Positions 13,619-38,984 of a DNA stretch of 64,000 bases are shown one piece after another. The translations under genes were made by a program, and so were the position numbers. Numbering within the stretch: position 1 is the stretch's first letter; the number at the start of each line of letters is the position of its first letter. The notes under the pieces were generated by a model that was given only the letters and a program-made list of their open reading frames with translations, was not told where the DNA came from and did not search any database. The stretch comes from Dictyostelium discoideum (taxonomy: Eukaryota), in NCBI GenBank assembly GCA_000004695.1, contig CM000152.2:4288001-4352000 (forward strand), given 5' to 3'.

Positions 13619-13959
13619 TATTAATTTAAAAAAATAAAAATAAAAAAAATAAAAAAATAAAATAAATAAATAAAAAAAAAATAAAAAAATATATAAAAAA
13701 TAAAATAAAAAATAATAACAATATTAAATAATTAAATAATTTATTTATTATTTTTTTTTTTATAGTTGGAACTTTTGTTTAACATATTAATCTAATTTAT
13801 CTTTTTTCAAGATTTAATTAAGCTTTTTTTACAACCAAAATATCTAAAAAGATATTTTCTTAAATTTTTCTTAATTTTTTTTTTTTTATTTTTTTAAATT
13901 TGTTGGTTGAAAAAAAAAAAAAAAAAAAAAAAAAAAGAATTTTGTTTAATTAATAAAAA

Positions 13960-19170: not shown

Positions 19171-20826
19171 TTATCTTTTTCTATCTCTATCCCTATCTAT
19201 ATCTCTTTCTCTTCCTCTACCTCTATCCCTGTCTCTTTCTCTTTCTCTACCTCTATCCCTATCTCTTTCTCTGTCTCTATCTCTGTCTCTATCTTTTTCT
19301 CTTTCTCTATCTCTATCTCTATCCCTATCTTTTTCTCTATCTCTATCCTTTTTCTTATCTTTATATTTTTTCTCTTTTTTCTTTTCCTTTCTTCTTTTTC
19401 TTCTTTCATAATCAGAATCATCACTTGATGAATCAGTGTCACTACTTGAATCACTTATATCACTAAATTGAGATAAATAAGATTTAACGTTTTCAACCCA
19501 CTCCTCTTTTTCTTGTTCTTTTTTTTCTTTTTTCTCTCTCTTTTCTTTTCTTTTCCTTTCCTTTTTTTCCTTTTTCTTTTGTTCTTTTTTTAATTTCTTT
19601 TCTTCTTTTGATAAAGGTTCATTTAGTTCTTTTATTATACTTTTTAGTAATGGTGAAATTGATTCTTTTGTTTGTTGTTTTTGCTCTTGTTCTTTCTGTT
19701 TTTGATCTTGTTTTAAAAAAGAAGAAAATGGGTCTAAAGTGTTGTCTTGTTGTTTTTGTTGTTGTTGTTGATCTTGTTTTAAAAAAGAAGCAAAAGGATC
19801 TAATGAACCATCCTGTTTTTGTTCCTGTTGTTTTTGATCTTGTTTTAAAAATGCTGAAAATGGATCTAATTCATCACCATTTGACTCTTTATTTTTCTTT
19901 TGTTGTTGTTGTTGATCTTGTTTTAAAAATGAAGAAAATGGGTCTAATTGATCATCAGACATAGGCTCCATTTTTTGATCTTCACCATTTTGTTTATCAT
20001 CACTTTCAAATATTGCCTTAAATAAATCGATTGGAGGTCTTTTGGCCTCCTTAACTTGAAATTCACCATTACTTTCAAATGTTGATACATTATATTGATC
20101 ATTATTACCAAATAATTCTTCAAGATTTAATTGAGCTGTCATATTTAATGTTGATGCTGCTGTTACTGTGGTAGAAGTTGGACTACTACTTGATTGTAAA
20201 ATAGGAGATGGTGATGGCGATGATTGTGTGGTTGCAGTGGGTATTGAATTTCGAATATTTGAATTTTGCTGTGTTGGTGAATTAGTTTCAAATGTAGCAT
20301 CAAATGGTATTTGATAATGAGTTGGTATATTTAGTTTTGATTTCCAATCATTTGATGATTTTTGTTTTAATTGCTTTTCAATTTTAAAATTTTCAACCTC
20401 TTCTCTTGAGTAAGGTGGCTCAACATTGAAACGTCTACATAATAATAGTTCAGGTACCCATTTTTCAATTAATTTCTTTGATTTAGTTTTTAATTTATTA
20501 TTATTATCTTTATTTTCATTAGATGTTGATGAAGAAGATGATGATGATACAAATCTATCATTTAATTTACTTTGAAGTGGTGAAAATGATTGAGCATACC
20601 TTTCAAAAACTTTATTCTCTTTTTCTTTTTCAATCTCTGAAATATCTCTATAACTTGAATAGTTTATTAATGATTGTTCTTTTAAATTCTTATCACCTTG
20701 TTTATCAAGTATATACTCATTAAATCTTAACCTTCTACCTGGATCCATTAAATATTCCATTGATTCTTTAATTATATTACCTGAGTTAATTATTGATTGT
20801 TGTGGTTGTGGTTGAATATTTTGAGT

Positions 20827-20879
<53 letters not shown>

Positions 20880-21167
20880 GCTGTTTTTGTTTATTAATTG
20901 AAAGTTGTAATTCACCTAATAAATTTGATCTTTGAATTGGAGTGATTGTTACAATATTTGTAGGTTTTTGTAAAATATTTTTATCTAATGGTGAAGTGAA
21001 TTTATGGTAATAATTAAAGTTAATTGGTAATTGTGGTGGTGGGAACCATTTAATTTCAAATGAAGTTTGACCACTACTTAATATAAATCCTTTCAAAGGT
21101 AATGTGCCATCAGAGCATCTTATTGTATATTTATTATCAATGGGTCTTAAAAAATCAACTATACCAC

Positions 21168-21200
<33 letters not shown>

Positions 21201-22514
21201 TCTTTATTTTATTGTTTTTACTACCTAACCAAGTATTTTTATCTCTTTCTCTCTTTTTATCGAATAAACCAGTATCATAAATATCATCATGATTTTCATT
21301 ACCATATAAATCGAAACCTTTGTCATCATCATCTTCTAATGCACCCAATCCAAATGATCCGATTGAAGACTTTGATGAATCCATTGATACACGGTTTGAA
21401 TTTGATTTTTGATTTTGAAAACGCATATTTTTTACATCTTCAGAAGGTTCATAACCAACACCATAAACATTATTCTTTTGTCTAATGTCTAATAGTTTTT
21501 TACTTGGTTCATTTAAAAGTATATTTTTATAAGCTTCTTCATCACCTGTTTCATCCTCTTCATTATCATCACTTTCATCACTTTCATCAACATCTTCATT
21601 ATCACCATTATCGAATGTATTATTATTATTATTATTATTATTAGTAGTAGTATTTTGAATGATTGATAAAATTGATTGAGGTATTTCTTCACCATCTTTA
21701 AGCTGTGATAATAGTTCAGAGGGTATTTCAACACCATCTAATGAAACCAATGATGATGATGATGATGAATGTCTAGACTTTTTATTTATTTTATTTGATT
21801 GCCTTTGTTTCTTTCTTTTTAATTTATTTTCTAATTGAATTCTCTTTAATTGACCCATAGGTTCATTCTTTAATTTATTCACACCCATTAATTTTAATAA
21901 TTTTACACCTATAGATTCTTTTGATGCTTCAACTATATTATTATTACTACCTTCATTAAATAAACTTTTTAAATTATTTGTATTTAAATTATTACTATCT
22001 AAATTATTATTATTATTATTATTATCATTATCATTACCAAAACTACCCAATCCACTGAAATAATTAAAATCAGAATGAGTTGTTAATTCTTTTGCTCTAT
22101 GTGTTAAATCTTCTTCATCCATAAAATCTTCTGGTTTTAATGGTTGAATATTATTAGATACTCTTTCAGTTTTTGATGATTTAAAAGTTGACGGTGTCCA
22201 TCCTTCTTTTGAACCAACTGAATTGAAATAACCTGCTGAAAATCCACCTGTAAATGCACCATGAATCTCTTTCTACCACTTTCATCCATTACCTCTTGTT
22301 TATGAATCGGTTTAAATGATTCTTTAAATGTTTTATTACTATTTGGTGTAAAATCATCATCATCTTTAAATTCAAATAATGTTCCAATTAATTTATTATT
22401 ATTTTTATTATTATTATTCTTTTTTTTTATATAATTATAATTTTCTTCATTTTCATTATTATTGCTATTATTACTATTATAATCATAAAAATTATTATAA
22501 TTATTTCTTTTCAT
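19171..22514 (-). CDS. GPATCH1 orthologue (G-patch domain protein 1, DUF1604-type N-terminus, RD/RE-rich C-terminus). The reading frame is broken by a 1-nt shift at about 22263-22266.
   Basis: The upstream frame gives ...[18 protein letters not shown] (matching human ...QDQTVRDEKGRYKRF). The downstream frame gives [27 protein letters not shown]...[10 protein letters not shown], matching [27 protein letters not shown]...[10 protein letters not shown]. Adding one G (plus-strand ccatgaat to ccatggaat) restores RKRFHGAF. The C-terminus has RDRDRE repeats and 4-5 tandem [12 protein letters not shown](Q/K)n units. Confidence 0.65.
19690..19960. repeat. Tandem repeat of about 72 bp, 4-5 units, inside the GPATCH1 coding region. 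It encodes the (G)xLDPF(S/A)xFLKQDQxxQxK units.
   Basis: The repeats are visible in both the minus ORF and the plus-strand shadow ORF (DLVLKKK...). Confidence 0.7.
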
Positions 22515-22869: not shown

Positions 22870-23152
22870 ATGTCAGGTGATAAACTTAAAGCCACATTAA
22901 CAATTGGAATTACAGATAGCGAATTAATAAATTTAGAATCTAATGGTAATGATATCACAGATGAATATATAAAAAATGAATTTCAAGAGGACACAAGTAA
23001 AGGTGGAATCAATGATTTATTAAAAAACATCATATCAATGCAACAAATTACCAATGTCGAATTAACAAAATTTGTAAATAAAGAAAAATCTGAAAAATTA
23101 GCCACAATTGACCAAACAGTACAAACAAAATCAAAAAAACAACAAAATAAAG
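22870..23152 (+). CDS. Small protein of unknown function, exon 1
   Basis: ATG at 22870, MSGDKLKATLTIGITDSELINLE... Donor GTAAGG at 23153, phase 1. Confidence 0.4.
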
Positions 23153-23188
23153 GTAAGGTATCTATATCATAATATTTATTATCCCACA

Positions 23189-23233
<45 letters not shown>

Positions 23234-23776: not shown

Positions 23777-24623
23777 CTAAAGATTTAAAGAAATATTTGA
23801 CCAATCTTCCCAATATTGTTTTGCTTTTGTTAAAATAGCAACCCATTCTTTCATTGAATCTTCAGATTCAGCGGCTAAAAGTAAAGTATGTTTTGGATGA
23901 ACCAATTGAAAGCAATGAATATAGGGTTTGAATTTTTTATCTTTTGGAAGGATTTCAATTGATTTAATTTCTAAAATGATTAATTCACCTTGAGGTTTTG
24001 GATCGTTATTATATTTATAATAGAATAAAACATCACGTTCCAAAGAGAACCAACGAGTTTTCCAACTTTTCATTAACCCATTCATTTTGAAGAGGAAACC
24101 CGATTTGGAGGGTAACGTATCGAACTTCTCTCTCAAAGCATCCTCAGCCATGAAATCTGGATAAACATATTTCAATAACCAATTCTGACTTTTTGAACCA
24201 TTTAATAGGAATTCGGTTGTTGTCGATCTAATCATACCATCCACTAAAATTAAAACTTCTTCTGGTTTCAGTGGACGATTATTGTATAGAATCGTTTCAA
24301 TCTTTTCCCTAATCTTTTTTTGTGCGATTGCTGTTGACTCTTCACCAATTGTTACACCACCAATCTCTCTACTAATTTTAAATGTACATAAATAATAACG
24401 TAATGAATCCACTAAATCACAAAGTTTAGTTGATGATGTTCTATCTGATTGTTCCTCCAAAACTTTACCACAAAACCATAAAACTGATGCAATATCAATT
24501 GATGGTACTTTATAACTTTTAATACCCATCTGTATAAATAATTCAATTGTATTCTTTACTTGTTCATATTTATCAATCTTTACAAATGTATTAATTAATG
24601 CTTCATAAATTAATTTTTCTTCT
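23777..24623 (-). CDS. PH-domain protein, exon 2 (C-terminal PH domain)
   Basis: Acceptor (minus) AG at 24625-24624. The phase 2 join gives ...GLK|KEEKLIYEALINTFVKIDKYEQVKNTIELFIQMGIKSYKV..., in frame with the PH domain (GFLFKMNGLMKSWKTRWFSLERDVLFYYK...CFQLVHPKHTLLLAAESEDSMKEWVAIL). Confidence 0.55.
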
Positions 24624-24704
24624 CTATATTTAAAAAAAAATTTTAAAATTAATATAAATTTTCTTTTTTTTATTATATATATATATCAAAATTTTAATTT
24701 ATAC

Positions 24705-25561
24705 TTTAAACCTGAATTATTTAAAATTGTTAAAATTTCTTGATAAGTTTGGATTGCATTTAAATATTTCTTTTCAGTTTGTTGTAATTTTGATTGTTCT
24801 AATGAAATTGAGATTAAAGCTTTTCTAATTTCAGTTGTTCTTTCTTGTGATTGATTACTTGTATCTTTTAATGATTCATAGTATAAAGTTGTTAAACATA
24901 CATTACATTGATTCAATGTATTAATTAAAATATCAGTTGGTGTTTGTATTATACATTGTGATGAGGATGATGATACTCTTGATTGTAATGGTAAATGTGC
25001 TCTTGATGGTGATATACCAATATTACCATTATTAAATGTTGTTGTTGTGGTTGCTGTTGTATTATTAGTATTAGTAGTATTAACACCACTACTAATATTT
25101 GATAACGAAGAAGAGGATGCCGATGACGATGATGATGATAATGATGATGATGATAATGATGGTGAAATTGGTTGTGGTTGATTTTGTGATGGGGTTGTTG
25201 GTAATAATGTTTTAGCAGTTGGTTTAATATATTGTTGTTGATGTAATTGAAATTGTTGTTGTTTTTGAAGTTTTTGTTGTTCATTAGTTTGTTGAATATA
25301 TTTATGAATGTCTAATACCAATTGATAGAATGTTGTATAACCACCCTCTGCTTTACCCTTGAATGATTTTATAAATACTTTTGATGATTTATCATATTGA
25401 TTATTCTCCAACATTGATAATCCCAATAAATCTAAACATATACAAACTTCATTACTATCTCCACCATATAATATCTCTCTAATATGTAATGATTGATTAC
25501 CAAATTGAACTGAATCTTCATATAAATTACATTTTCTACATGAATCCGCTAAAATATACAT
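24705..25561 (-). CDS. PH-domain protein, exon 1 (N-terminal region with a Q/S/T-rich linker)
   Basis: Minus ORF from M at 25561. Donor GTATAA (minus) at 24704-24699, phase 2. The frame also stays open a short way upstream of the M, so an upstream start is possible. Confidence 0.55.
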
Positions 25562-25614
25562 TAAATAACCACAAATTGGTGATTCCCTTTGGAAGGTTTT
25601 TTTTAAATAATTAG

Positions 25615-25673
<59 letters not shown>
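25615..25673. repeat. poly(A) tract of 59 nt
   Basis: Direct read. Intergenic, just upstream of the PH-domain gene on the minus strand. Confidence 0.95.
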
Positions 25674-25681
<8 letters not shown>

Positions 25682-26426
25682 TTAGTATGCAGTAAATTTT
25701 AATTATTAATTATTAATTATTAATTATTACTTTAAAACAACTTCATCTATTGCTGGTAATAAACTTTTTAATGAATTTATTTTATTTAAACTTTGATCTT
25801 CTAAACATGCTTTTATAACTTTGGTAACTGTTTCAGAGTATTGTTGTTTATGTAAACCTGGTTTTAAAAATCTTAAATTGGTTTCAATGGTCTTATTGAT
25901 AAATGTTTCTGCCATAGTTGTAGTAATTAATAACTACCTTTATTAGTAGTATTTTTTTTTTTGGTTTTTTTTGTTTTTTTTTTTTTTTTTTGTTTTTTTT
26001 TTTGTTTGTTTTTTTGGGTGTATGTTTTTTTTTTTTTTTTTTTTTTTTTGTTTTATCCAAAAACTTGATTTACTATTGATTTGGAAAATTTCTTTTGACT
26101 TTTATGACTTTCTGTGTTTTTTTTTTTTTTTTTTTTTTTTGATTTTATGTGTATTACAAAGCCGAATGAATTTATGATGTGTATTTAAATTTGGGTTCTT
26201 GTCGTTTGGGATCTTTTTGACTTAAAAAAAAAAAAAAAAAAATTATTTTTTTAAATTTTCTTTTCTAAAATCAAAAAAAAAATAAAAAAAAAAAAAAAAA
26301 TTATTTTTTTTTATTTTTTTATTTTTTTTTTTATTTTTTTTTATTTTTCTAATTTTTTTATGAATCATTATAAAAAATATCTCAATCAGGTTCTATTGCG
26401 AGTCAAAAATAGTTTTTAAAGGGGTT

Positions 26427-34928: not shown

Positions 34929-38984
<4,056 letters not shown>

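Follow-up and report, generated by a model that had tools for sequence, protein, structure and literature searches.

The minus strand of the Dictyostelium discoideum DNA analysed here, a stretch of 64,000 nucleotides hereafter called the window, carries a gene whose product is by domain and homology criteria a GPATCH1 orthologue, and this gene is interrupted, within the motif that is conserved best, by a frameshift of a single base. The question that the locus raises is whether the interruption belongs to the organism or to the sequence by which the organism is represented. The preliminary description, made from the letters of the window, considered an error of base calling or assembly likelier than a genuine frameshift. 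Here we describe the split gene, follow the site through five independent assemblies and weigh whether the gene is recoded, spliced, mutated or wrongly sequenced.

Judged by its coding sequences, the window is the AX4 reference of chromosome 3. The AX4 protein EAL66937.1 corresponds exactly to a window ORF, and look-ups of neighbouring ORFs lead to AX4 proteins, with DDB_G0281281 as an exact match and DDB_G0281265 in the same cluster.

The frameshift site and the identity of the gene

The lesion is located on the minus strand at 22264..22265, where the window has TT and five independent assemblies have TTT, in the codon for Phe84 of the restored protein (AGA TT- CAT versus AGA TTT CAT). Seen from the plus strand this is AA in the window and AAA in the other assemblies, and the alignment of the window with the most similar assembly (L001, see below) places the missing T at 22263/22264. 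Over positions 22255-22275 the two versions of the site are GATTCATGG, the TT form, and GATTTCATGG, the form with the third T. The 1-nt frameshift is confirmed, at the coordinates claimed, as present in the sequence as given and is no effect of chance.

Two reading frames meet at the site. The upstream one, frame A, starts with an ATG at 22514, has MKRNNYNN as its N-terminus and forms an ORF of 125 aa (22514..22137, minus strand) with its stop at 22139-22137. The segment that begins at Met1 and ends with the second base of the Phe84 codon (22264..22514, minus strand) is genuine coding sequence, identical to codons 1-84 of the 1,114-aa ORF of L001. The tail past the lesion (22137..22263, minus strand), which ends in ...IIFNH, consists of 41 unrelated codons and is an out-of-frame artefact rather than real protein. 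The remainder of the gene is in frame B, which runs on the minus strand from His85 (CAT) to Arg1114 and the stop at 19171-19173 (19171..22263, 1,031 codons). Part of it is an ATG-started ORF of 983 aa (19171..22122, minus strand) that begins at Met132 of the restored protein and is intact, as had been claimed. Upstream, frame B is closed by a minus-strand TAG at 22273..22275, three codons before IHGAFTGGF. This TAG and the frame-A stop confine any switch of frame to the interval between them.

When one base is added after window position 22264, the frames fuse into a single ORF of 1,114 aa that contains the whole of DUF1604, which bears out the earlier placement of a single-base frameshift inside the most conserved motif. 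The same description had repaired the motif by inserting a G, changing gcaccatgaatc to gcaccatggaatc on the plus strand. Here the base was wrong and the protein right: the relatives show gcaccatgaaatc, with an extra A on the plus strand and thus a T on the coding strand, but since both repairs encode Phe-His, the repaired protein is the same. The window as a whole is AT-rich (24% G+C). Exact look-ups among the recorded contigs found neither the 125-aa frameshifted product, the AX4 record itself lying outside that index, nor the neighbouring 100-aa ORF at 22870..23172. A metagenome scan with the 35/36-mer of the site gave 0 matches for either version.

In the restored protein DUF1604 (PF07713) occupies residues 68-150 (22066..22313, minus strand) and is split by the lesion after residue 84. 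Pfam assigns the domain 120.1 bits (cut-off 25) over profile positions 2-84 of 84, as compared with 97.8 bits over positions 17-84 for frame B alone and no Pfam match for the 125-aa frame-A ORF alone, from which it follows, far beyond chance, that the two halves are one domain split by the 1-nt shift. The closest annotated relatives are dictyostelid proteins described as putative G-patch-containing proteins. The orthologues compared, those of Polysphondylium violaceum, Tieghemostelium lacteum, Cavenderia fasciculata and Acytostelium subglobosum together with one further dictyostelid-like protein, all read KQEV.D..GRKRFHGAFTGG(F/Y)S(A/S)G(Y/F)FN without interruption across the lesion point.

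More distant comparisons point the same way. The restored protein matches three solved GPATCH1 chains, all from spliceosome-related entries: 9l5s_1 (E 3.1e-31), 9esh_y (S. pombe C20H4.06c; 2.8e-30) and 9s2f_GP (4.8e-28), the last bearing the chain name G patch domain-containing protein 1. BLASTP against a vertebrate GPATCH1 (P0210) is collinear over the N-terminal domain as well as over the middle and C-terminal parts, where it includes the motifs W.PE.LLC.RFNV and RPP.DLFKAIF. In fungal and animal members the latter region corresponds to PF26093, with the motifs LLCKRFNV and DLFKAIF; Pfam does not detect PF26093 here, but BLASTP yields for this protein a second, likewise collinear alignment to P0210 (70.5 bits, E 3e-16) that includes stretches of 26 and 22 residues. 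By the criteria of DUF1604, solved chains and BLASTP the restored protein is a GPATCH1 orthologue, in agreement with the preliminary assignment.

The site in five assemblies, and recoding or splicing across it

Five assemblies served as comparators: GCA_054883475.1, GCA_054859355.1, GCA_054859385.1, GCA_054859205.1 and GCA_054859235.1, in this order L001 to L005. Their project combined Nanopore and Illumina sequencing and covered the laboratory strain AX2-214, two wild D. discoideum (CR116C and OT3A) and two possible cryptic species (M4B and S6B) (PMC12745789). The set thus holds one AX2-like assembly, two of wild D. discoideum and two of D. cf. discoideum. The comparator loci were taken by way of the neighbouring PH-domain gene, with 10-kb flanks. 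In all five the GPATCH1 gene is syntenic, lying between the small gene that adjoins the PH-domain gene and a DREV methyltransferase gene.

Inspection of an independent assembly or strain at this position had been proposed beforehand. When it was carried out, every one of the five assemblies read TTT at the site, as AGA TTT CAT GGT against AGA TT- CAT GGT in the window. Each encodes the protein in an uninterrupted single-exon ORF, of 1,114 aa in L001, 1,110 in L002, 1,153 in L003, 1,194 in L004 and 1,149 in L005. Across the clade dN/dS is 0.15-0.35 on both sides of the lesion, which indicates that the gene is under purifying selection there.

L002 to L005 are about 84-96% identical to the window. 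L001 is far closer: two blocks, 22 kb in all, align at 99.55% and 99.81% identity; for comparison, AX4 and AX2 are 99.5% identical at another locus, and a single laboratory strain was sequenced in the project (PMC12745789). From this near-identity and the strain list of the publication, which is not an accession table, we infer L001 to be AX2-214. Across the 11.9-kb block around the gene, window and L001 differ by one substitution and three indels, the indels being two length differences in long intergenic homopolymers and the T at 22263/22264. Within the 3.3-kb gene the missing T is the sole difference, and the translation of the L001 ORF (L001 13354-16698) is identical to the repaired window protein.

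Could AX4 make a full-length protein from the sequence as given? Programmed recoding, either by -1 ribosomal frameshifting or by transcriptional slippage, would do so, and a -1 shift at TTC|CAT would indeed geometrically restore RKRFHGAF. We give it hardly any credence. Frame A reads A AAG AGA TTC ATG, which does not contain a slippery heptamer of the form X XXY YYZ, and for slippage of the polymerase the site offers no long homopolymer, only TT. A segment of 136 nt that begins with the frame-B TAG, 9 nt before the shift site, and extends to the frame-A stop does fold slightly better than its shuffles, but the score is unremarkable (22275-22140: MFE -25.8 kcal/mol, z = -1.58, 14 of 200 shuffles at least as stable) and no notable stimulatory structure lies downstream. 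Moreover, all five related genomes encode the protein in one plain frame, so that a recoding signal is neither conserved nor needed.

A very short spliceosomal intron could also bridge the frames. The preliminary description had held that no GT..AG fits, which is not literally true: enumeration of all pairs gave 198 GT/GC..AG pairs that restore an open frame. Every one of the 198, however, deletes conserved DUF1604 residues. The shortest plausible candidate is the 20-nt GTAATGGATGAAAGTGGTAG (window 22292-22273), with GTAATG as donor and TAG as acceptor. Its excision would connect ...HKQE with frame B but would remove ten residues that all orthologues have kept, and its length is far below the known intron sizes of D. 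discoideum. Introns of this species are roughly 85-90% A+T, a range that no candidate reaches, those shorter than 190 nt having 55-75%, and seven longer ones reaching 79-82%. In the five other genomes the nucleotides of the candidate introns are plain coding sequence. Splicing across the lesion is thus extremely improbable. Both possibilities were rejected, the intron for the DUF1604 residues that would be lost, recoding for its missing slippery site and unremarkable fold.

Reference error or deletion in the laboratory lineage

The T may have been lost by the cells or by their published sequence. According to the former account, the AX3/AX4 laboratory lineage, once separated from Ax2, fixed a genuine 1-bp deletion that left AX4 without full-length GPATCH1; we consider this unlikely. 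A deletion seen only in the AX4 reference, and not in a near-identical AX2-like assembly, does have the pattern of a lineage-specific mutation, and laboratory strains are known to hold real private lesions such as the chromosome 2 duplication of AX3/AX4 (PMC4374526; PMC12745789). This duplication and the axeB/NF1 deletion are genuine lesions of D. discoideum laboratory strains that, like the present one, are gene-disrupting differences between reference and wild type (PMC4374526). The axeB lesion, however, is common to Ax2 and AX4 and confirmed by reads, whereas the AX2-like assembly does not have the 1-nt deletion, which is known from the reference sequence alone. As to the plausibility of such a loss, GPATCH1 orthologues are dispensable in some fungi, and AX3 was reportedly obtained after mutagenesis, both of which count for a real deletion; against it, nitrosoguanidine mutagenesis causes mainly G:C to A:T transitions and not 1-bp deletions.

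With a true deletion, the predicted AX4 products would be at most an 84-residue N-terminal fragment followed by a 41-residue nonsense tail and, possibly, a protein initiated at Met132, whose DUF1604 would be missing residues 68-131, or 64 of the 83 matched ones, and with them the conserved motif. AX4, the most widely used reference strain, would then be a natural GPATCH1 knock-out or N-terminal truncation and Ax2 the wild type, which could contribute to differences in splicing or expression between the two; the biological story would be a modest one. The gene itself argues against such a loss. Unitary pseudogenes are recognised by several lesions, but here there is no second one, the rest of the gene being identical to L001, and the purifying selection seen in the clade gives no sign of relaxed constraint.

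Another argument comes from the other positions at which the window stands alone. At the other informative, non-homopolymer differences between window and L001, the distant assemblies (L002-L005) side with L001 every time and never with the window. Private sites polarised in this manner are 25326, 34962, 34893, 33951, 25855, 29431, 29390 and 29580, plus 35148, for which there was one outgroup. Altogether about 10 states in the 22 kb are private to the window (~4e-4 per base), most of them transversions, with a second 1-nt coding indel among them. These other differences cannot all be real. Ax2 and AX4 carry an identical complex axeB lesion (PMC4374526), which implies a recent common axenic ancestor, and mutations in the nuclear genome arise at a measured 2.9e-11 per site per generation (PMC3466296). 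Given such recent shared ancestry and so low a rate, private differences at this density cannot represent real divergence, and most must be errors of the reference, as is to be expected of a sequence from the Sanger era. In addition, 1,916 candidate differences from the reference were found to be common to AX4-derived lines, and were ascribed by the authors to reference errors or clone differences (PMC3466296); the density of these shared discrepancies is of the same order as that of the private differences reported here.

No feature sets the lesion apart from the other window-private differences. It resembles the single-base errors of the 2005 Sanger AX4 reference in being private to the window and contradicted by all other assemblies, and differs from the others in striking a conserved gene within its best-conserved motif, where an error breaks the gene into two ORFs instead of passing unnoticed. 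One property speaks against an error: the run has only three bases, which is less typical for homopolymer miscounts than the long runs behind most of the other indels.

We conclude that very probably one T was lost in base calling or assembly of the AX4 reference and that the organism encodes an intact gene. As five assemblies, including that of a near-identical laboratory strain, have the T and an intact gene, of which one differs from the window across the gene by only that base, the frameshift is almost certainly an ordinary sequencing error, and the preliminary preference for such an error is upheld. That no contig on record carries the 125-aa product also speaks for an error. The choice between error and real AX4 mutation was made on base rates because the comparison is with other assemblies and not with AX4 reads. 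In the proposed scenario, one T of the TTT run of the Phe84 codon would have been dropped from the Sanger-era reference of a single-exon GPATCH1 orthologue. The organism would most likely encode a normal protein of 1,114 aa with an intact DUF1604, and the 125-aa and 983-aa ORFs would be artefacts of the single missing base. AX4 cells themselves, we infer, carry the T.

The protein collection gives no indication of how the locus is annotated in AX4. Homology searches of the protein collection gave nothing nearer than the P. violaceum protein, at 41% identity. Exact look-ups indicated that the collection holds neither the GPATCH1 orthologues of the five assemblies nor the repaired protein, although neighbouring genes are present, and since even those orthologues are missing, the absence of an AX4 GPATCH1 protein there is uninformative. 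Literature searches for GPATCH1 with Dictyostelium and for plausible DDB_G identifiers found nothing relevant.

The finding matters mainly as housekeeping, the frameshift being almost certainly not biology. Because a conserved, single-exon splicing-factor gene is broken into two ORFs in the AX4 reference, full-length D. discoideum GPATCH1 will be missing from any gene models, proteomes and orthology tables that derive from it. The correct 1,114-aa sequence can be obtained from the AX2-like assembly (L001 13354-16698). The density of private discrepancies and the second coding indel call for caution when frameshifts or pseudogenes are read off this assembly.

Protein architecture and neighbouring sequence

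GPATCH1 is a spliceosome-associated G-patch protein (human GPATCH1; S. pombe SPAC20H4.06c; PDB 9s2f, 9esh and 9l5s), with which the D. discoideum protein has the N-terminal DUF1604 core in common. In contrast to GPATCH1 elsewhere, it is longer and has no G-patch that Pfam can detect: a Pfam search of the protein with E-values up to 10 found neither the G-patch (PF01585) nor PF26093. Similarly, precomputed Pfam annotation of the dictyostelid orthologues P0121-P0124 lists PF07713 only and no G-patch. At the position of the G-patch (window 21850-21921, residues ~199-222) there is only a degenerate remnant, of which 12 residues align with SIGVELLRKMG, the start of the G-patch in fish GPATCH1. In Cavenderia and Acytostelium, IGLKLLK(R/K)MGWKEGQ can still be recognised. 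Erosion of the helicase-binding motif may be under way in group-4 dictyostelids.

The restored protein further carries poly-N and poly-Q tracts, four DPFS(S/A)FLKQDQ repeats and an RD/KE-rich tail. The repeats, at window ~19700-19960 (residues ~855-940), are in tandem and of the type LDPFS(S/A)FLKQDQ(Q/K)QQ; they are followed by a KE-rich stretch and then a tail rich in RD dipeptides, which in PDB searches gave weak matches to the RD/RE repeats of NELF-E and protein Red.

Several observations concern the sequence around the gene. The scattered private single-base differences at 25326, 25855, 26784, 33951, 34893 and 35148 are mostly transversions toward A/T. That at 25326 falls in the PH-domain gene and has been carried into the AX4 protein EAL66929.1, which fits the window with 0 mismatches but L001 with 1. 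At 34962, within the minus-strand ORF 34929..38969, the window reads AAAAA where all five other assemblies have AAAA. Through this extra A a large Q-rich gene ends in ...QHQQQKCSTTKYNNYK in the window instead of the ...QHQQQNVVQQNTTTTNNSNNSKSKKTRAS of L001; judging from these assemblies, it is probably another reference error.

Between 29300 and 29700, in 400 bp of AT-rich intergenic DNA, a cluster of ~20 substitutions and small indels separates the window from the AX2-like assembly. Where the wild isolates can be aligned they agree with AX2, and the segment looks like a low-quality stretch of the reference. Two long homopolymer tracts vary in length between the window and the AX2-like assembly, that at 23195-23210 by 16 A and that at 13910-13914 by 5 T, which could reflect an error in either assembly or tracts that are truly unstable. 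Finally, the AX4 model of the PH-domain gene DDB_G0281265 (window 23777-25915) has 567 aa as compared with 636-645 aa in the new assemblies, the AX2 protein being ~70 residues longer at its N-terminus, with an extra upstream exon.
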